From: Patescibacteria group bacterium
GTDB taxonomy: Bacteria; Chloroflexota; Anaerolineae; Promineifilales; Promineifilaceae
Length of the DNA stretch: 64,000 nt
Direction of reading: 5' to 3'
Assembly: GCA_035527655.1 (NCBI GenBank)
Contig: DATLAB010000014.1
Span: 33,099-97,098 of the forward strand
Shown here: in pieces, positions 3,901 to 48,237 of the stretch
How the letters are laid out: each line of letters starts with the position of its first letter
Position numbering within the stretch: position 1 is the first letter of the stretch
Notes under the pieces: generated by a model
The model's database searches: none
The model's input: only the letters and a program-made list of their open reading frames with translations
What the model was told of the DNA's origin: nothing
Translations under genes and position numbers: made by a program

Positions 3901-6045
3901 GTCATCTGGGGCGGCGAAAAACCTATGGATCTGTCATATTTGAACGCGGTTCTTAAGAGTACTTTCTTTCCCCCTTACGATCCCTGGTTTTCCGGCGGCT
4001 ATATCAATTATTACTATTATGGATTCGTATACGTTGGTTCTTTGATCAAACTATTGCAGATTGTGCCAACAATCGCCTATAACCTGATACTGCCGATGTT
4101 GGCCAGCTTTACGGGTCTCGCGGCTTTTAGTATTGCCTTCAATATTATCACTAAAAATGTAGGCCATCAGGCCAACAAAGTAGATGATGCAGACGGATTG
4201 AACGTACCAACCGCTCGTCTGTTACCCAATCGCCAGGCACTCTTTGGGGGATTCGTAGCAGCTGTTCTCATCCTGTTATTGGGAAATCTGGCAGAAATTA
4301 CGGTCGTATTCAATGCATGGTATAAGGCCGGCGAACTGTCCACTGCAACGGGCATCACGCCTATAGATGCCCTCCTTAGAACAGTCGATGGCGCGCTGGA
4401 TCTCTCCTTAACCGATGAAGTAGCCCCAATCTACCCTGGTGATTGGTTTTGGAACGCCTCCAGGACTATCAATGCCGATCCCGGGGAAGTACAACCTATC
4501 ACTGAGTTTCCTTTCTTTACGTTTCTATATGGCGATTTGCATGCCCACATGGTTGCCTTGCCTCTCACGTTACTGGCTCTCGGCTGGGCGGTTTCCATCG
4601 TTCTCCAGCATCTCGGCCAGGGCACTGATCCAGAGAAAGTTTTGCCTGTGTGGCAAAGGGCAATGCAGTTGTTGATTGGCGCTTTAGCTATTGGTGTGCT
4701 TTGGGCAACCAATACCTGGGACTATCCAACCTATTTATTCTTAGGTGTTTTGGCCATAGTCTATGGCGTCTATCTGCAGCGCAAGCGTTGGGGTTGGGGG
4801 ACAGTCGCTCAGGGCCTGTTCCAGGCCACCCTCCTGATCGTTGTGTCCTTCTTGTTATTCCTGCCTTTCACTGCCAACTACGGCCGAGGTTATAGTTCAT
4901 TCAGATTCTGGCCCGGATCTTACACGCAACTCGGTAATTACCTGCTCATTTATGGCCTGTTCCTTTTCCTTATCATCACCCATCTCGTTGTGGAATTTCG
5001 CCTTTGGACAAAAAGCTGGAGCCAAAAATCCTTAGAATATTGGGAACGCTTCGCCATTCCGGTTCTGCTTGGCCTGGTTCTTTATACCGCCATGCTAATT
5101 GTTTTATTGTCCAAAGGCTATTGGATCGCTCCTGTGGCGCTACTGTTATCAACATTGGCCGGGCTACTAGCCATCAGACCTGGTCTTCCGTTGGTTCGAA
5201 GAATCCCACTGGTGATGATCTCCTCTGCCTTGGCCTTGACCCTGCTTGTTGAGATCATCGTCCTCGACGGTGATATTGGGCGGATGAACACGGTATTTAA
5301 GTTCTATATGCAGGTCTGGGTATTGCTCAGCGTTGCTGCTGGTATTGTCATAGTCTGGGATTGGCCTTCGGTTTCAGCTCGGCCGACCGTGCGACGGGTT
5401 TGGCGGGTCGCCTTGATCATCCTGCTGTTCCTGGCGGCCTTATATCCTCTTTTGGCGACCAAAGCCAAATGGGACACTCGAATGAGCGATCAGGCCCCTA
5501 CGACCCTCGACGGAATGGCTTTTTTGCAAACAACCACGTACACAGATATCGCCAATGATGGCACCGGTCGCTTGATTGATCTCAACCAGGATTATCTGGC
5601 TATTCAGTGGATGCAACGAAACATCGAAGGGTCACCGGTAATAGCTGAAGCACATAGCGATAACCCCTACCGAGCCGCTGCCAATCGTGTGTCAATGTAC
5701 ACTGGACTTCCTTCGATAATAGGTTGGGATTGGCACCAGAGACAACAACGGGCTGTTTTACCGGGATCAATAGTTAGTGACCGTATTTTTGACGTGAACA
5801 CCCTGTTCAACACCCCAGATATCCCCCAAGCGATGGGTATTTTGGACAAGTACGGGGTATCGTATATTTATGTTGGACCTTTAGAGTGGACTTACTATAA
5901 CTCCCTCGGTTTATTAAAGTTTCAACAGATGGTCAGGGATGGCTTTATCCGGGATGTTTATAATGAAAATGGCGTCACAATCTACGAGGTCCTGGATCAG
6001 ACGGATGCCACGACAGCCCTACTTACAACGACTAGGAACCAATAA
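943..6045 (+). CDS. Giant (about 1700 aa) membrane protein: N-terminal GT-C/PMT-like glycosyltransferase-like region fused to a DUF2298 / Chlor_Arch_YYY domain
   Basis: The ORF is open from TTG 928, but ATG 943 preceded by GGGAGA is the likelier start. An acidic motif HLHPDERF follows the first TM, and many TM helices follow. The C-terminal half carries the DUF2298/TIGR03662 hallmarks INYYYYGFVY and FPFFTFLYGDLHAHM. The C-terminal soluble domain (IEGSPVIAEAHS...GLPSIIGWDWHQ) is paralogous to that of the next gene. Confidence 0.8.
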   Translation: MTAEEQENGVDDLSPAVESEAPPATQPTEIDQDSGKSLLTLKVLIPFLLLLVLILGAYFRFTGLDWDNTYHLHPDERFLTDVASLLHSTNPITYLKTSESPLNPYNVGRTFFVYGNFPMTATRLVAEGVDSVCQSLPDLCERSYVFYDGIHLVGRSLSGLADLVSILFIFLIGRRLYDWRAGILGALLLAAAVLPIQQSHFFTMDNWAAALAVITMYGAVRVSENDSKYRWWAFFGVLLGLTVASRINLAPLAVMAGIAGFVWLARRAIDHSPEPGWRFLLTTKGGQDFQHVVLGIAIAAILSIIVFRLAQPYAFADSQIVKEVVSAETGQPPGLIETIIKSVFSFNPQWRANMTEIQNLQSPEASFPPALQWTDRLPIVFPYLNIVLWGMGLTAGIAATFGFFWALWRIIKARPDWTSHLLIVSWVGLYFIFMSTRWVKSIRYFLPIYPFLLLLAGWALVELWNRAGRSKAKKSMAAFVALVVIIPSLLWANAFVDTYRQSVTRVQASQWMFENVPTGATLLYESAGESRQLQLPLRHFEFIQDSIPLFITFNMPETGDVTGIRFNYLSDPDSALGSDSGETLNVSLLDGSNNTALVEKELSLQLGDQRQSALLNWSGVPVAQGSVYTLLAEIGPGGPIRAGTSVIANEHWDDSLPVRYEGQDPFGGFYDGTGDGQIQITHPDSEEKRQSFYRWLEESDYIVLSSQRAAWSLPRLPFTFPMTIRYYEALFGGELGFDLVNEFHSDTHVGPLFVSDVGGAVNWGAPPEIGWPPPGIMAAEEAFSVYDHPPVWIFEKSDHYSPELVRDILGPVDLRDVIVMSPGEATRAPNGLLLDESDRAIQEANGTFNDLFLTDGLLARYPGLAAVVWWLVVILLGWLFFPITFIVFRGLPDRGYPLARILSLLLISYITWLLASLKILSHSRSTIILVILVMLAACLAIAISQKRELLGFVRKNLRLIGLIEILGIGLFLLFILIRLGNPDVWDVIWGGEKPMDLSYLNAVLKSTFFPPYDPWFSGGYINYYYYGFVYVGSLIKLLQIVPTIAYNLILPMLASFTGLAAFSIAFNIITKNVGHQANKVDDADGLNVPTARLLPNRQALFGGFVAAVLILLLGNLAEITVVFNAWYKAGELSTATGITPIDALLRTVDGALDLSLTDEVAPIYPGDWFWNASRTINADPGEVQPITEFPFFTFLYGDLHAHMVALPLTLLALGWAVSIVLQHLGQGTDPEKVLPVWQRAMQLLIGALAIGVLWATNTWDYPTYLFLGVLAIVYGVYLQRKRWGWGTVAQGLFQATLLIVVSFLLFLPFTANYGRGYSSFRFWPGSYTQLGNYLLIYGLFLFLIITHLVVEFRLWTKSWSQKSLEYWERFAIPVLLGLVLYTAMLIVLLSKGYWIAPVALLLSTLAGLLAIRPGLPLVRRIPLVMISSALALTLLVEIIVLDGDIGRMNTVFKFYMQVWVLLSVAAGIVIVWDWPSVSARPTVRRVWRVALIILLFLAALYPLLATKAKWDTRMSDQAPTTLDGMAFLQTTTYTDIANDGTGRLIDLNQDYLAIQWMQRNIEGSPVIAEAHSDNPYRAAANRVSMYTGLPSIIGWDWHQRQQRAVLPGSIVSDRIFDVNTLFNTPDIPQAMGILDKYGVSYIYVGPLEWTYYNSLGLLKFQQMVRDGFIRDVYNENGVTIYEVLDQTDATTALLTTTRNQ

Positions 6046-40666: not shown

Positions 40667-41050
40667 TCACAAGGCACGCATTGTACGACCAGCTACAGCC
40701 AGTCCTTGATAAATCAATCCAGTGCTTAGCTGGACCAACAAAACCCCAGCTGCCAACTTTTGCCGTGTATCCATTGCCGAAAATACGCCGCCAACACCAA
40801 TAACCGATTTTTGACCCTGTTCGGAATGGCCTATATAAGCAATCATATCGTTGCTTTTTTGGTCTGAATGAGTTCCCTTGAAGCCCCCGACCTCACTATA
40901 ATGTTGGCTCGATAATCCATTGCTGACTAAAGTTTTATAGATAGCCACAATATCGTCAATGTCTTGGCTGAGGGTGCTATCCAGGATCTGCTCGATCTCA
41001 TGAAAAGAGGGACAAAGCGCAATTTTGACGTGCAGGGCTTTATTTCGCAT
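40667..41050 (-). CDS. Hypothetical protein (127 aa)
   Basis: This is the only ORF of appreciable size between lepA and acyP on the shared strand. It has no SD and no recognisable motif. Confidence 0.3.
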   Translation of the reverse strand: MRNKALHVKIALCPSFHEIEQILDSTLSQDIDDIVAIYKTLVSNGLSSQHYSEVGGFKGTHSDQKSNDMIAYIGHSEQGQKSVIGVGGVFSAMDTRQKLAAGVLLVQLSTGLIYQGLAVAGRTMRAL

Positions 41051-43737: not shown

Positions 43738-43948
43738 TTAATAGTTTAATAGACAGATGGTGTGTACGTGCTTCAGTTCCTGGAATTGATATTCGGTCCA
43801 TGTAATCCTTCGCCAGACCAGCCATTTATTTTTATGTAATCAATATTCTCTCATCGGCGAAAGATTGCCCGATTGTCAATGCCAAGTTTTTATTTATTGG
43901 AGAGTGGGATGCCCCACAATCCAACCCTTATGGAAAGAGGAGAAATAA

Positions 43949-44119
43949 ATGAGCGAGCAACTGAATATCAACACGTTCCATCAGCTATTAAACTCGGAAT
44001 CCGATCAAGGTTCACTTCTGGGTACGTTACGCAGTATAACGGAAGTAAACGATCCGGCAGACCTAAACCTGAAAGCTGGTGGTACGTCGCTGGGTACATG
44101 GGCGGGCTGGCGGAGATAA
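43949..44119 (+). CDS. Unlisted 56-aa ORF: candidate ComX-like (RiPP-type) precursor peptide, MSEQLNINTFHQLLNSESDQGSLLGTLRSITEVNDPADLNLKAGGTSLGTWAGWRR
   Basis: I translated it by hand. The SD GAGGAG at 43937-42 lies 6 nt before ATG 43949, and TAA is at 44117-19. It falls below the 60-aa cut-off of the ORF track. It has an acidic/polar leader, a Gly-Gly, then an 11-residue tail with two Trp. It is on the same strand as the IPPS-fold gene and 102 nt upstream of it. Confidence 0.55.
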   Translation: MSEQLNINTFHQLLNSESDQGSLLGTLRSITEVNDPADLNLKAGGTSLGTWAGWRR

Positions 44120-44221
44120 GCAACTGCAATCTATTAAGATAGCTTAAGATAATAGAAGTGGAATCGATGGTTCTGACGGCTTGTGAAGGCGGTCTGGTGA
44201 TGGCTATGGCGTTAGGTATTC

Positions 44222-45181
44222 TTGGCGGTAAATAGCTCAGAGATCAAAGAGATCCTCGGGACGTTTCCGGAAATTGGAAAGTGGCCGGATTTGGTCGGAG
44301 TTTTTGATCGTGCCGGGGACGTGAAGCGGCCGGATTGGGAGCTACCTATATTAGCCTGTCAGGCGGTTGGCGGAGACCGCTCCCAGGCTCTACCCGGAGC
44401 TGTTGCCGTTGCATGTCTCCAGTTGAGCATCATCATCGTTGACGATATTCTCGATGATGACTGCGGGGGTGTTCACTTCCTTTATGGGAATGGACCAGCG
44501 GCAAATATGGCGCTTGCCTACCAATCACTTGCGGCTTTGAGTTTGTGTCGCGCAGAAATAAGTGACTTTGACAAGGCAAGAGCCAGCGAGGCTCTGAACA
44601 GAGCGGCGTTAAAGACGGCAACTGGCCAGCAACTGGATGTTCAAAACCTTCGTGGTGAAGAAAGTTATTGGCTGGTTATACACGCGAAGAGCACACCTTT
44701 CTATGGCTTTGCCTTTGAGCTTGGTGCAATTCTTGGATCTGCATCAGCCAGTATCACCCAGGATATGTACTCTCTTGGAGTCGTTATTGGCGAGATCATC
44801 CAGGTTGAGGATGATCTTATCGATGCACTGGAAGTGCCTGCTAATGCAGACTGGAAGCAAGGGCGTAATAACTTGCTTTTGCTTTACGCTCAAACAGCGG
44901 AGCATGAAAAACGAGAACAATTCCTCCGGTTACTAACTAAAATTGATGATCCTGGAGCATTAGCAGAGGCCCAGCGGATCCTGGTTTCATGTGGTGCAGT
45001 TTCCTATGCATCTTACCAATTGATAAATCGTTATCGAAAAGCAATAAAACTCCTTAGGGGTATGTCCCTAATAGATCCGTCGGGTCTCCATCACGTGCTT
45101 GATGAGTACGCTGATTCCCTCCGAACCAGACTAAAATTGAGTGATATTGAGTTATTCAATGAATCGTTAAAGGATATCTAA
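44222..45181 (+). CDS. Polyprenyl-diphosphate-synthase-fold protein (trans-IPPS family) lacking IPP-binding basic motifs; candidate ComQ-like peptide prenyltransferase
   Basis: First Asp-rich motif IIIVDDILDDD (44441-44461), then GQQLDV, KST and the second Asp-rich motif IQVEDDLID (44810-44824). The canonical GGKRxRP is GGDRSQALP here, and the RRG following the first motif is CGG. TTG start (44222); the frame is closed just upstream by TAG 44213-15. Confidence 0.8.
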   Translation: MAVNSSEIKEILGTFPEIGKWPDLVGVFDRAGDVKRPDWELPILACQAVGGDRSQALPGAVAVACLQLSIIIVDDILDDDCGGVHFLYGNGPAANMALAYQSLAALSLCRAEISDFDKARASEALNRAALKTATGQQLDVQNLRGEESYWLVIHAKSTPFYGFAFELGAILGSASASITQDMYSLGVVIGEIIQVEDDLIDALEVPANADWKQGRNNLLLLYAQTAEHEKREQFLRLLTKIDDPGALAEAQRILVSCGAVSYASYQLINRYRKAIKLLRGMSLIDPSGLHHVLDEYADSLRTRLKLSDIELFNESLKDI

Positions 45182-45196
45182 ACCTCATCAGCTAAA

Positions 45197-45229
45197 TATT
45201 GCTGTTCTTTGTTGCCTTTTACAGCAATA
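45197..45229 (+). other. 9-bp perfect hairpin between the IPPS-fold gene and the kinase gene (no U-tract)
   Basis: TATTGCTGT (45197-45205) pairs with ACAGCAATA (45221-45229) around a 15-nt loop, 16 nt after the stop at 45181. It could be a processing site, a stabiliser or a weak terminator. Confidence 0.4.
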
Positions 45230-45408
45230 CCTCCTGCTTGTTATACCCAGTCAATTTCTTCAACTTGTTCATAATTACTCTTATACCATATCTGATAGTA
45301 CGAGATATCTATCCTACATAGGAACATAGTGGGATTGCAGATGACAACTGCAGGCAAGTACAATGGTACTATCGACTATAAATAACTGTTGAAATCGAAT
45401 ACGGACTG

Positions 45409-48237
45409 ATGAGTTACAAATTTAGGGGAAAATTCAGCCACTTAAATCGGTCGTTGCTAGCCTTTGCGATCTTAGTGCTAGGGGTGTACCTGTACTACAC
45501 CCTGAGTTTTATTGGTCTGACCCCATACCCCGGAATCGTATTTACGGCCATATCTGGCGGATGGCAGGTAAATGACTCCTCCCTGGCCTCTGTAGCAGTC
45601 GACGAAGTACTCGTCCAAATTGCCGACTTAACTTATGCTGATTACCGGCTTAACCCATTTAGTGTTCCTTTCGATGGATATACACCGGGTGACGCTGTGC
45701 CCGATGTGATTACGGAGTCCGGCGAAACTCTTTCGCTGGTCATGCCAATCCCAAGTTTTCAGGATCGCCTGCGACGCCTTGTCGGTACTTTGTGGTTCTT
45801 TCCATTCTGGATGGCTGGAACTGCCGTATTATTATTTCTAAGACCACGTGATCTGAGTTGGCGATTGCTGATTGCCTTTATGTACCTTGCCGCAACCTGG
45901 GCGCTTGTTGGAAGCATCGCCAATTGGCAAGTTGGCGCGTCCACTATTGTTTCCATTCTCGTTGCCTGGCTGATGGTTCCGTGTGTGATTCATTTGCATC
46001 TGACTGTGCCAAGCCCGATATTCGTCTCTTTTACCCGGCGGATAATGCCCCTCATTTATATTGGCTCAATCGCCATTGCCATTATTGAGATAACCCAAAG
46101 TTCCGACCGGCTCAGCATCAGTCTCCTGGCTTTAGCTCTGGCTGTAATGTATAGCATTCTGATTCTGGCGTATCGCTCGTTTCGCAAAGGTGCACCCATA
46201 TCAGACCGAAATTCAGCCCGATTGATGCTTTCGGGTATTGGCCTTGCCTTTGGGCCGGGCATTCTGGTCATTACGTTGCCCCAGGTGTCGGCATTGTCGG
46301 TGCCTCCAGGGTTCGGTGTGAGCCTGGCTTTCATATCACTGCCAATCTTTCCGATCTCCTACACCTATGCCATCTATAAACGTCAGTTGGGACAACTTGA
46401 ATTTAGGGCGAACCGGCTCCTCGGCATTTACAGTTTCATACTCCTCTATCCTACGATCTTTATTGTGGTTCTTCTCTTAGGCGAACAGTGGCTGGTTACA
46501 TCCAGCACCAAAACCTTTTATCTCTTATTCGTATCGATTATTTTTGTGATGGCAACGCCGCCAATCCTAAATTTTCTCCAAAAAACAATGAACCGATTGG
46601 CATATGGCACTGAGCATGATCCGGATGATATTCTGCGAGTATTCGCCAAGAATATTCCTTTGGCCAAGAGTCGCGCTGCACTCTCAGATTCGCTCAACAG
46701 AGATATATTACCAGCCCTGCTGATTAGACAATCAGCGTTATCATTATTCGATAGCGATGGGGTTGAGCTAATCTATGCAGATGGCATATCGCAATCCGCT
46801 GTTCCAAGCACATCGGATGAGCTTGAAAAACTGGGTCTTGCCGCTAGAGCCTACAGACCACCTGCCACGGAAAATATAATGGATCATGACTGGGTTCGTT
46901 TGGCCATACCCCTGATCACACCAGAGAAGGCAATTGGTGTCTGGTTGTTTGGGCGCAGAGATCCCGACGATTTTTACCCCCAGAATGATATTGACTTATT
47001 ACATTCCTTGGCGAACCAAATGGCGCCGGTTATCGAAAATGTCAGGCTTTATGAAGAATTGCAACGCCATGCCAACGATTTGACCGAAGAAGTTGCTAAC
47101 CGGACATCAGAACTTCGGGCGGAGAAAGACAGAACCCAGGCAATTCTTGACAGTGCCGGTGAAGGAGTATTCTTCACAGATCCAGCTGGCGTCATTCTTT
47201 ATGCCAATCAGGCCTTAGCCCATCAGTCCGGTTTTACGGCTGATGATCTTATCGGAAAAACTCTTGAATTATGGCAAACCGAGGAAGATGCCCATGATTC
47301 TTACAGAGATATGTGGACGGCGATTTACACTGGGCACGAATGGGGTGGCGAGATGCTTTTGCATCGGAAAGATAACACTTACTGTGATGTCAACCTCGTA
47401 ATGGCGCCGATTCTCTCGGAAGGTGGCAAGTTGTCCGGCTTTGTTGGTGTTCAATCTGATATTAGCAAGCTTAAGGAAGTCGACCGCCTCAAATCAAATA
47501 TTATCTCCAGCGTCTCCCATGAATTAAAAACCCCTCTCACCACAATTAAAACATACCTCATGCTCATACAGCGTGGTAAACCGGAGAAAAAAGATAGCTA
47601 TATGGTCGTATTAAACAGGGAAGCCGACCGACTAGCGATAATTATTGAAGATCTCTTGGATCTCTCCTCCCTGGAAACCGGCAAGATCCCGTCGCGACTT
47701 GAGCCAATGGATTTGTTATCAACCGTCGGGATAGCCATCACCAGTTGCCAAACATTAGCCAATACAAAGCAAATCTCAATCAACTCAGCTATTAATGGCG
47801 CGCTACCCATGGCCATCGCGGATAGCAGTCAAATGGAACAAGTATTAATGAATCTCATTGTAAATGCGCTAAACTACTCATTTCATGGTAGTTCTGTGAC
47901 GATTCGAACCGGTGAAGGTTCATTAAATAGCCATGAAGGCGTATGGGTGCGCGTCTCCGATAATGGACCCGGTATCTCGGAGGGTGACTTGCCTCATTTA
48001 TTTGACCGGTTCTATCGGGGTGAAGCAGCGCTTGAAAGTGGCGCTCCGGGTACAGGACTTGGGCTGGCTATTTGCAAGGAGATTATTGATCGCCATCAAG
48101 GTAAGATTGAGGTTGAAAGCAAACCAGGTGGCGGCGCGGCCTTCACGGTCTGGCTGCCGGCACTGAAACCGGCAAAGATGGAGCATGACCTTCTGACTCC
48201 GAAACCGGCTGTAAAATCTGTGGACACGACCGATTAA
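45409..48237 (+). CDS. Sensor histidine kinase: roughly 10-TM N-terminal sensor region - GAF - coiled coil - PAS - HisKA - HATPase_c
   Basis: About ten hydrophobic helices fall in residues 15-390, with a roughly 85-aa loop after TM1. GAF-like WVRLAIPLITPEKAIGVWLFGRRDP, PAS ILDSAGEGVFFTDPAGVILYANQA, H-box SSVSHELKTPLTTI, N-box NLIVNALNYS, G1 DNGPGI, G2 GTGLGLAICKEI. Confidence 0.9.
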   Translation: MSYKFRGKFSHLNRSLLAFAILVLGVYLYYTLSFIGLTPYPGIVFTAISGGWQVNDSSLASVAVDEVLVQIADLTYADYRLNPFSVPFDGYTPGDAVPDVITESGETLSLVMPIPSFQDRLRRLVGTLWFFPFWMAGTAVLLFLRPRDLSWRLLIAFMYLAATWALVGSIANWQVGASTIVSILVAWLMVPCVIHLHLTVPSPIFVSFTRRIMPLIYIGSIAIAIIEITQSSDRLSISLLALALAVMYSILILAYRSFRKGAPISDRNSARLMLSGIGLAFGPGILVITLPQVSALSVPPGFGVSLAFISLPIFPISYTYAIYKRQLGQLEFRANRLLGIYSFILLYPTIFIVVLLLGEQWLVTSSTKTFYLLFVSIIFVMATPPILNFLQKTMNRLAYGTEHDPDDILRVFAKNIPLAKSRAALSDSLNRDILPALLIRQSALSLFDSDGVELIYADGISQSAVPSTSDELEKLGLAARAYRPPATENIMDHDWVRLAIPLITPEKAIGVWLFGRRDPDDFYPQNDIDLLHSLANQMAPVIENVRLYEELQRHANDLTEEVANRTSELRAEKDRTQAILDSAGEGVFFTDPAGVILYANQALAHQSGFTADDLIGKTLELWQTEEDAHDSYRDMWTAIYTGHEWGGEMLLHRKDNTYCDVNLVMAPILSEGGKLSGFVGVQSDISKLKEVDRLKSNIISSVSHELKTPLTTIKTYLMLIQRGKPEKKDSYMVVLNREADRLAIIIEDLLDLSSLETGKIPSRLEPMDLLSTVGIAITSCQTLANTKQISINSAINGALPMAIADSSQMEQVLMNLIVNALNYSFHGSSVTIRTGEGSLNSHEGVWVRVSDNGPGISEGDLPHLFDRFYRGEAALESGAPGTGLGLAICKEIIDRHQGKIEVESKPGGGAAFTVWLPALKPAKMEHDLLTPKPAVKSVDTTD

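Follow-up and report, generated by a model that had tools for sequence, protein, structure and literature searches.

ComQ is the founding member of the tryptophan prenyltransferases that have the fold of an isoprenyl diphosphate synthase (IPPS). Several other enzymes of this fold have been described to prenylate indole rings. For example, PalQ of Paenibacillus alvei belongs to a kinase, precursor and prenyltransferase cluster (PalQ-PalX-PalP) and conserves the Asp residues of the second motif rich in aspartate (SARM) (PMC10853753). Likewise, the P domain of ChrPC is an IPPS-fold tryptophan prenyltransferase (PMC13290415). StheQ, from the Chloroflexi member Sphaerobacter thermophilus, prenylates the penultimate Trp of the peptide StheX, as a preprint reports from liquid chromatography-tandem mass spectrometry and crystallography; the enzyme has Mg2+ bound at the first motif rich in aspartate (FARM) and a metal-free pseudo-SARM (N215-D216-x-x-D219), and its authors propose a quorum-sensing-related role (bioRxiv 10.64898/2026.08.29.745113). 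The same chemistry on free indole is known from Ord1 and XiaM, which are all-alpha-helical indole farnesyltransferases of Streptomyces (9V4G; PMC12510300). The present analysis concerns a comparable locus in 64,000 nt of contig DATLAB010000014.1 (assembly GCA_035527655.1), from a genome placed in the Promineifilaceae of the Chloroflexota. This whole stretch is called the window, and positions are counted from its first letter. Three genes at 43949-48237, in the order X-Q-P, encode a small peptide (X), an IPPS-fold enzyme (Q) and a sensor kinase (P), with X 102 nt upstream of Q and P 227 nt downstream of it. The homologies and the gene order suggest that Q prenylates a Trp of X and that the product is most likely the ligand of P, a reading to which a probability of roughly 0.7 is given.

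The X-Q-P cassette

The conservation of the cassette was followed in a sample of 75 loci, one genome per species, with L075 as the outgroup. The loci were obtained from metagenome-assembled genomes (MAGs) of Anaerolineae, Caldilineae, Ardenticatenaceae and Promineifilaceae, and from Ca. Amarolinea aalborgensis. Homologues of the P sensor (aa 1-540) stand beside Q in about 55 loci, and the full X-Q-P order is present in 49, where the gap between Q and P is often 0-6 nt. P is found upstream of X-Q and divergent from it in the most divergent members of the sample (L051, L055, L058 and L063; 40-44% identity), and hence the linkage of P survives rearrangement. Of two further loci, one has P upstream and on the strand of X-Q, the other downstream and on the opposite strand. 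The genes flanking the cassette in the window, lepA and a tlyA-like gene, do so solely in the five closest loci. Since these flanking genes are shared by the closest relatives alone, the unit that is conserved is the X-Q-P trio.

Five loci (L044, L053, L060, L059 and L067) have X and Q with no P homologue. Three of them (L044, L053 and L060, from MAGs binned as Caldilineaceae or Truepera) encode an X ending in NRWGWC or NRWGWW and carry a receiver-domain gene beside Q on the opposite strand. Typical cassettes with or without P also occur on bins assigned outside the Chloroflexota, namely L018 (Zixiibacteriota), L025 (Promethearchaeota) and L044 (Truepera), for which mis-binning is probable and horizontal transfer possible.

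A hidden Markov model (HMM) built from 13 small open reading frames (ORFs) upstream of Q detects equivalents at 66 of the 75 loci, in addition to X of the window itself. Eight of the nine loci with no match have too little upstream DNA or a divergent peptide that is visible by eye, and the ninth is the outgroup. The homologues are 47-62 aa long and follow the leader pattern M..TIE.F..LL.S......LL.ALR.LT....PE, with F10, W51 and W54 invariant in 43 aligned sequences. A W-x-x-W motif is present in 57 of 65 distinct C-termini and its second Trp is preceded by Gly in 38 of the 57; the tail after this Trp comprises 0-5 residues, usually one or two, and in three of the 57 the Trp is terminal. W54 of the window peptide is predicted to be a likelier acceptor than W51 because a Gly stands before it, the context that PalQ prefers. 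The ribosome-binding site of the window X is a strong one. Neither X nor its 43 homologues could be assigned to a family of Pfam or NCBIfam; two of the homologues gave a faint hint of Nif11 (E=0.12). Similarly, no leader of the NHLP type was detected in the 43 peptides with NCBIfam, and X has no Pfam match to ComX. The spacer between X and Q holds no stable RNA structure (z=-0.57), and scans for promoters and terminators performed no better than on shuffled sequences.

Two loci show unusual arrangements of X. Two tandem X-type genes (5245-5445 and 5376-5744 of L019), with ends ...PLG[PS]WSGWSW, lie 5' of one Q gene. An X-type ORF at 5681-6010 of L006 continues into a long tail that is unrelated to X, and about 1.1 kb separates Q from the start of the P homologue; a frameshift or an insertion is possible.

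The nearest solved relative of Q by sequence is an indole prenyltransferase. Ord1 is its top match in the Protein Data Bank (phmmer E=4e-14), above the geranylgeranyl diphosphate (GGPP) synthases of Pyrococcus and Geoglobus. In hhalign comparisons, the profile of the Q family gave E=6e-13 against the Ord1 fragment (203 columns, 30% identity), E=1.5e-8 against ComQ (237 columns) and E=1.6e-7 against IspA (157 columns), the comparisons being asymmetric in that ComQ was used as a profile, and IspA and Ord1 as single sequences. By these asymmetric sequence comparisons Q is a divergent IPPS-fold protein, no farther from the indole and peptide prenyltransferases than from a canonical synthase. The queries were authentic: the Bacillus subtilis ComQ sequence is 99-100% identical to database proteins, its farther matches being named ComQ or 'isoprenyl transferase (pre-ComX modification)', and the IspA sequence is 100% identical to 1RQJ.

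Relatives of Q are numerous. Among 5.8 billion proteins, 270 matched at E<=1e-5. The best 120 of these 270 are all at E<1e-87; the few of them that have an organism name are Chloroflexota, and the label 'geranylgeranyl pyrophosphate synthase' or 'polyprenyl synthetase family protein' is common among them. When the profile was run against 1.84 billion cluster representatives, 253 clusters (50% identity) were found at E<=1e-30. Against the named synthases in NCBIfam, the two top scores of Q are 77.9 and 76.5 bits, with curated cut-offs of 450 and 468; the families matched are IdsA, GGPP synthase and encapsulin-cargo prenyl transferase, with cut-offs of 275-600 bits, none of which is reached. The Q family is a large one of the Chloroflexota that, most likely, is mostly mis-annotated as GGPP synthase, and its function is a predicted one. 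One 655-aa cluster representative (P0167) matches the Q profile over its first 246 residues, where a fusion or a frameshift read-through into the neighbour is possible.

The kinase P (942 aa, 45409-48237) has about 10 transmembrane (TM) segments. When a profile of 50 P sensor regions was compared by hhalign with one made from 14 regions of ComP sensors, the match had E=1.3e-5 (probability 80%, score 49.4). The alignment runs through 391 collinear columns, which include TM1, the outer PDZ-like loop and TM helices farther on, and the motifs LAFgPG...P and P..Y.YA.YK..LG.LEF.ANR are common to both sensors. Control alignments with reversed and block-shuffled ComP sequences scored 18-26 (E=0.02-0.25). 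For the window kinase against ComP, pairwise BLAST and phmmer were non-significant and a single-sequence hhalign gave E=0.1, the signal being obtained from profile-profile comparison only. The outer loop of ComP has a faint Pfam match to PDZ. The sensor of P is likely, on these alignments, a remote homologue of the ComP sensor. In the locus used for comparison (L076, 7172-9501), comP of Bacillus mojavensis is split into two frames of 309 and 474 codons, an apparent frameshift, and its called product is 461 aa.

The features of the cassette are collected in Table 1. Outside it, a 127-aa ORF (40667-41050, minus strand) lies between an acylphosphatase-like gene and lepA; homologues with 35-43% identity occur at a similar distance upstream in 7 loci.

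Table 1. Features of the X-Q-P cassette, by position in the window.
Feature	Position	Strand	Basis
Shine-Dalgarno-like GAAAGAGGAG, 6 nt ahead of the X ATG	43933..43942	+	Read from sequence
X, 56-aa precursor MSEQLNINTFHQLLNSESDQGSLLGTLRSITEVNDPADLNLKAGGTSLGTWAGWRR, leader and C-terminal W-x-G-W core	43949..44119	+	ORF list; HMM E=2.4e-21
Predicted core LGTWAGWRR; candidate prenyl acceptors W51 (44099-44101) and W54 (after Gly; 44108-44110)	44090..44116	+	Conserved Trp
Q, IPPS-fold (trans-isoprenyl diphosphate synthase-like) predicted peptide tryptophan prenyltransferase, 319 aa, TTG start	44222..45181	+	ORF list; PF00348; AlphaFold2
AGDVKRP, aa 31-37, true equivalent of the GGKRxRP loop; Lys lost (D33), Arg kept (R36)	44312..44332	+	MAFFT; global hhalign; AlphaFold2 loop 32-36
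VGGD, aa 49-52, loop ahead of the FARM helix	44366..44377	+	Aligns with Ord1 'AVGGD' and the IspA 'GHMFGVS' loop
DDILDDDCGGVH, aa 74-85, first Asp-rich motif and shortened, Arg-less RRG segment	44441..44476	+	hhalign against IspA
GQQLDVQN (aa 135-142) and KST (156-158), allylic-diphosphate-binding residues by homology	44624..44695	+	Alignment
QVEDDLID, aa 194-201, Gln and intact second Asp-rich motif	44801..44824	+	Alignment of 38 relatives
P, sensor part, aa 1-440: TM1, PDZ-like outer loop of ~85 aa, about nine more TM segments	45409..46728	+	Hydropathy; hhalign
P, cytoplasmic part: GAF 442-544, PAS 575-685, HisKA 695-758, HATPase_c 805-918	46729..48237	+	Pfam

Fold and substrate sites of Q

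The initial annotation had described Q as an IPPS-fold enzyme that keeps its metal-binding motifs and has lost the basic residues for isopentenyl diphosphate (IPP). The fold is borne out by the match to PF00348 (polyprenyl synthetase; E=1.4e-18, 67.4 bits with a cut-off of 27, residues 43-240), by the AlphaFold2 model made from 38 homologues (mean predicted local distance difference test score 91.3, predicted template modelling score 0.90, all-alpha with 18 helices) and by Foldseek, which aligns this model with the archaeal GGPP synthases 5JFQ and 1WY0 at template modelling scores of 0.77-0.79. Matches to archaeal and bacterial prenyl diphosphate synthases as a whole range from 0.74 to 0.79, Ord1 being at rank 21. 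Q is a real IPPS-fold protein. Its motifs were also read correctly: both DDxxD motifs (DDILD, aa 74-78; DDLID, aa 197-201, within VEDDLID), GQQLD (aa 135-139) and KST are kept, and the Asp residues are invariant in 38 relatives. The full set of invariant positions across 38 family members includes D74, D75, D78, K156, Q194, D197, D198, D201 and R215. Others are invariant in a manner specific to the Q family, namely D38-W39 (straight after R36-P37), N95, N142, Y149-W150, D210-W211 and R215-N-N. N142 is aligned with an invariant Asn of ComQ. Q194 is aligned with Q216 of Ord1, and the same Gln is also present in canonical synthases; its equivalent has been proposed to recognise indole in Ord1 and PalQ (PMC12510300, PMC10853753).

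The diphosphate of IPP is bound in human farnesyl diphosphate synthase by K57 and R60 and by R113, whereas R112 binds the allylic diphosphate, and Gln96 is hydrogen-bonded to IPP (PMC4106277). The counterpart of the GGKRxRP loop had been placed at GGDRSQALP (aa 50-58), an assignment that is rejected, as MAFFT, global hhalign, the AlphaFold2 secondary structure and the spacing to the FARM all favour AGDVKRP (aa 31-37). The N-terminal part of the global hhalign with IspA is of low confidence, and the same register is backed by the secondary structure that AlphaFold2 predicts (helix 23-31, loop 32-36, helix 37-48, loop 49-52, helix 53-77). The VGGD of the rejected segment is part of a common 'alGGd..alp.A.a.E' stretch, also present in Ord1. 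In the correct loop, the Lys position (K45 of IspA, K57 of the human enzyme) is D33 in Q and D, S or N across the family. The claimed loss of basic residues thus holds for this Lys and for the Arg residues after the FARM, but R36 is retained. K35, which adjoins R36, is rare in the family. Similarly, the downstream GD of canonical synthases ('aGD') is indeed replaced, though by A97-L98 in the hhalign with IspA and not by AY as annotated. The basic C-terminal tail is absent from Q in the MAFFT alignment with IspA. The change of H77 of IspA to Q67 was considered as a sign of IPP-site loss and rejected, as human farnesyl diphosphate synthase carries Gln96 at this position (PMC4106277).

Predicted function and alternatives

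According to the proposed mechanism, Q would bind an allylic prenyl diphosphate, probably of C10-C20, through the Mg2+ cluster of the FARM and SARM together with K156 and R215, and would ionise it. The prenyl cation would then be handed to a Trp indole of X, likely that of W54, in a remodelled IPP pocket with no IPP added. From the analogy with Ord1 and PalQ, the indole NH is probably oriented by Q194 and D197, the Gln ahead of the PalQ SARM having been proposed to bind it (PMC10853753). A ring closure of the ComX type on the modified Trp is possible. Leader removal and export of the modified X would be carried out by unspecified factors, and the product would most likely be sensed by P, with the signal passing to a response regulator encoded elsewhere. 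The suggestion of the initial annotation that Q passes a prenyl group on to a Trp in a peptide with no IPP condensation is supported because there is a conserved X family, the X-Q-kinase trio, the Ord1 match, a ComP-like sensor and, in ComQ, PalQ and StheQ, biochemical precedents for such a reaction. Taken by parts, peptide prenylation by Q is judged quite probable on homology and synteny, and the processing and export of modified X followed by its sensing by P is placed at even odds or slightly below.

Several observations weigh on the other side. Pherotype-like hypervariability was not seen between the window and the MAG locus L001, which are 93% identical in X, 91% in Q and 96% in the sensor. 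No protease, exporter or response regulator is encoded within the cassette; a tblastn search with CheY and PhoB queries (E<=1e-4) found no receiver domain in the 64-kb window, and none is consistently near the cassette. The homology of the P sensor to that of ComP is only moderately significant at its probability of 80%. The enzyme itself adds further points. The Arg position of the GGKRxR loop (R48 of IspA, R60 of the human enzyme), R36 in Q, is Arg in 74% and His in 19% of 118 family members, and behind the FARM the members share the consensus DDxLDDDPRGxH, a shortened loop in which one Arg or Lys is left, at position 82, in 114 of the 118. As the Lys of GGKRxRP is lost but the Arg kept, and one Arg or Lys remains after the FARM in most of the family, the loss is partial and the IPP site, as far as the alignments tell, is eroded and not erased. 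With R36 and, for most of the family, R82, a diphosphate might still be bound where the IPP pocket was. An intact SARM belongs to the canonical synthases; in ComQ, StheQ and Ord1 it is degraded. In the window, the segment after the FARM reads DDDCGGVH with no Arg, and G82 occurs only in Q and in its 91%-identical counterpart of L001 among the 118 members (codon 82 at 44465-44467 of the window and 6241-6243 of L001); the activity of Q could be altered by the absence of this R82. Caution on peptide prenylation is therefore needed in view of the intact SARM, the retained R36 and R82, and the lineage-specific G82.

The absence of a response regulator beside the cassette, the five X-Q loci with no P and the lack of pherotype-like divergence would also fit the view that Q and X make a prenylated ribosomally synthesised and post-translationally modified peptide, for example a membrane-active or antimicrobial lipopeptide, and not an autoinducer, in which case P would only regulate or would sense some other thing. 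Antimicrobial prenylated peptides exist, and the biological role of PalQ/PalX is open as well. This alternative is nonetheless considered unlikely, as P adjoins Q in about 55 loci, frequently with translational coupling between the two, the P sensor can be aligned with the sensor of ComP, the receptor for a prenylated Trp peptide, and the cassette has no conserved immunity or export genes.

It is improbable that Q prenylates a free small molecule, such as indole, tryptophan or another aromatic, in the way of Ord1 and XiaM, with X unrelated to the substrate. Ord1 is indeed the best solved match of Q in both phmmer and hhalign, and the Gln before the SARM and the 'GR' after it are common to the two enzymes. 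However, there are no terpenoid or indolosesquiterpene tailoring genes nearby, and the peptide gene with its invariant double Trp, upstream of Q in 66 loci, would be left unexplained.

Still less probable is an impairment of Q catalysis by R82G in the lineage of the window and L001, by which Q would be left to bind without catalysis or the cassette would be in decay. G82 is unique to this lineage among the 118 relatives, but the other invariant residues are intact and K35 in the neighbouring loop might compensate. The two Q proteins differ by 28 scattered substitutions and none of the three ORFs is broken in either locus, which fits purifying selection.

The last alternative, that Q truly elongates chains as a short-chain synthase (a GGPP synthase, the name given in the source annotations) and lies beside X and P by chance, may be set aside as the least probable of all, for although both DDxxD motifs, GQxxD, KST and an FQ-like IQ are intact, R36 is kept, R82 is present in most of the family and the best NCBIfam and Foldseek matches are archaeal IdsA and GGPP synthases, the NCBIfam score is 77 bits against cut-offs of 450-500, K45/K57, the RRG spacing, 'GD' and the basic C-terminus are lost, and a housekeeping role fails to explain the strict linkage with X and P across variable flanks.

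If Q prenylates X as proposed, at least 253 Chloroflexota clusters (50% identity), most of them now named 'GGPP synthase' or 'polyprenyl synthetase', would become peptide tryptophan prenyltransferases. The cassette offers a defined substrate family, the W-x-G-W peptides, together with a candidate receptor, and would make cell-cell signalling directly testable in the abundant and hard-to-culture filamentous Chloroflexota. Enzymes of the Q family are potential biocatalysts for peptide lipidation, and their intact second Asp motif would make them useful for tracing how the IPPS fold, which condenses IPP in the synthases, came to prenylate indole. The resemblance of the sensor to that of ComP suggests a joint passage of enzyme and receptor across phyla. 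A tentative extension, held at somewhat less than even odds, is that X-Q-P may serve filamentous Chloroflexota (Anaerolineae, Caldilineae and Ardenticatenia, with wastewater genera such as Ca. Amarolinea among them) as a widespread and unrecognised system of peptide quorum sensing, with a prenylated autoinducer that has two Trp residues and with an ancestry of enzyme and sensor in common with Bacillus ComQXP. Prenyl-tryptophan signalling would then be an ancient or horizontally shared language of two phyla.

Comparison with known systems

IPPS-fold tryptophan prenyltransferases are already established; what is new here is a Chloroflexota family with a precursor class of its own and a ComP-like sensor, its function being predicted. 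No description of an Anaerolineae-type X-Q-P cassette was found in the full-text literature, a coverage outside which most subscription journals fall. The cassette is set apart from those of the ComQ, PalQ and StheQ kind by the intact second Asp motif, the X-Q-P order, the GAF-PAS-HisKA transmitter and the lack of an adjacent regulator.

The ComQXP(A) system of Bacillus (IPR033965) is similar in having an IPPS-fold enzyme beside a precursor of about 55 aa, with a Trp near its C-terminus, and a polytopic sensor kinase. Both ComQ and Q lack the RRG spacing and have an Asn after GQxxD. However, the second motif of ComQ is the degenerate xGDYx where Q has a full DDLID in the aligned columns. The gene order in Bacillus is Q-X-P-A, and the transmitter of ComP is of the HisKA_3 type with an adjacent GerE-type regulator, ComA, whereas P has GAF-PAS-HisKA and no regulator nearby. 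ComX has one Trp and no W-x-G-W motif; X has two Trp residues.

PalQ shares with Q a Gln three residues before the SARM (Q197/D200 in PalQ, Q194/D197 in Q) and prefers Gly before the acceptor Trp, as is found before the second Trp in 38 of the 57 W-x-x-W peptides. PalX differs from X in its NHLP leader and in having the Trp as its very last residue, whereas the leader of X is unclassified and its two Trp residues are followed by others. PalQ, which was compared by its description only, is said to be remote from the trans-isoprenyl diphosphate synthases in similarity networks, and Q scores 67 bits on PF00348.

Likewise compared by description, from the accessible part of the preprint, the StheQ locus encodes an adjacent peptide (StheX, about 69 aa) with two Trp residues near its C-terminus. 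Unlike X, StheX lies downstream of its enzyme, its Trp residues are adjacent (-3 and -2), and no kinase linkage is seen in that part of the source.

Ord1 resembles Q in the AVGGD...ALP...C.Q segment, in the Gln before the second motif and in 'GR' in place of 'GK' after it. It differs in keeping RR after the FARM and 'GGD', in a second motif of the form DDxxA that holds no metal, in acting on free indole within a terpenoid pathway, and in having no linked peptide or kinase.

The canonical trans-IPPS enzymes (IspA, 1RQI; archaeal GGPP synthases, 1WY0 and 5JFQ) have in common with Q the fold, both DDxxD motifs, GQxxD and KT or KST. They possess the GGKRxR Lys, the RRG spacing, 'GD' and a basic C-terminus, all absent from Q. 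In contrast to them, Q scores far below the NCBIfam equivalog cut-offs and belongs to a family that is tied to a peptide and a kinase.

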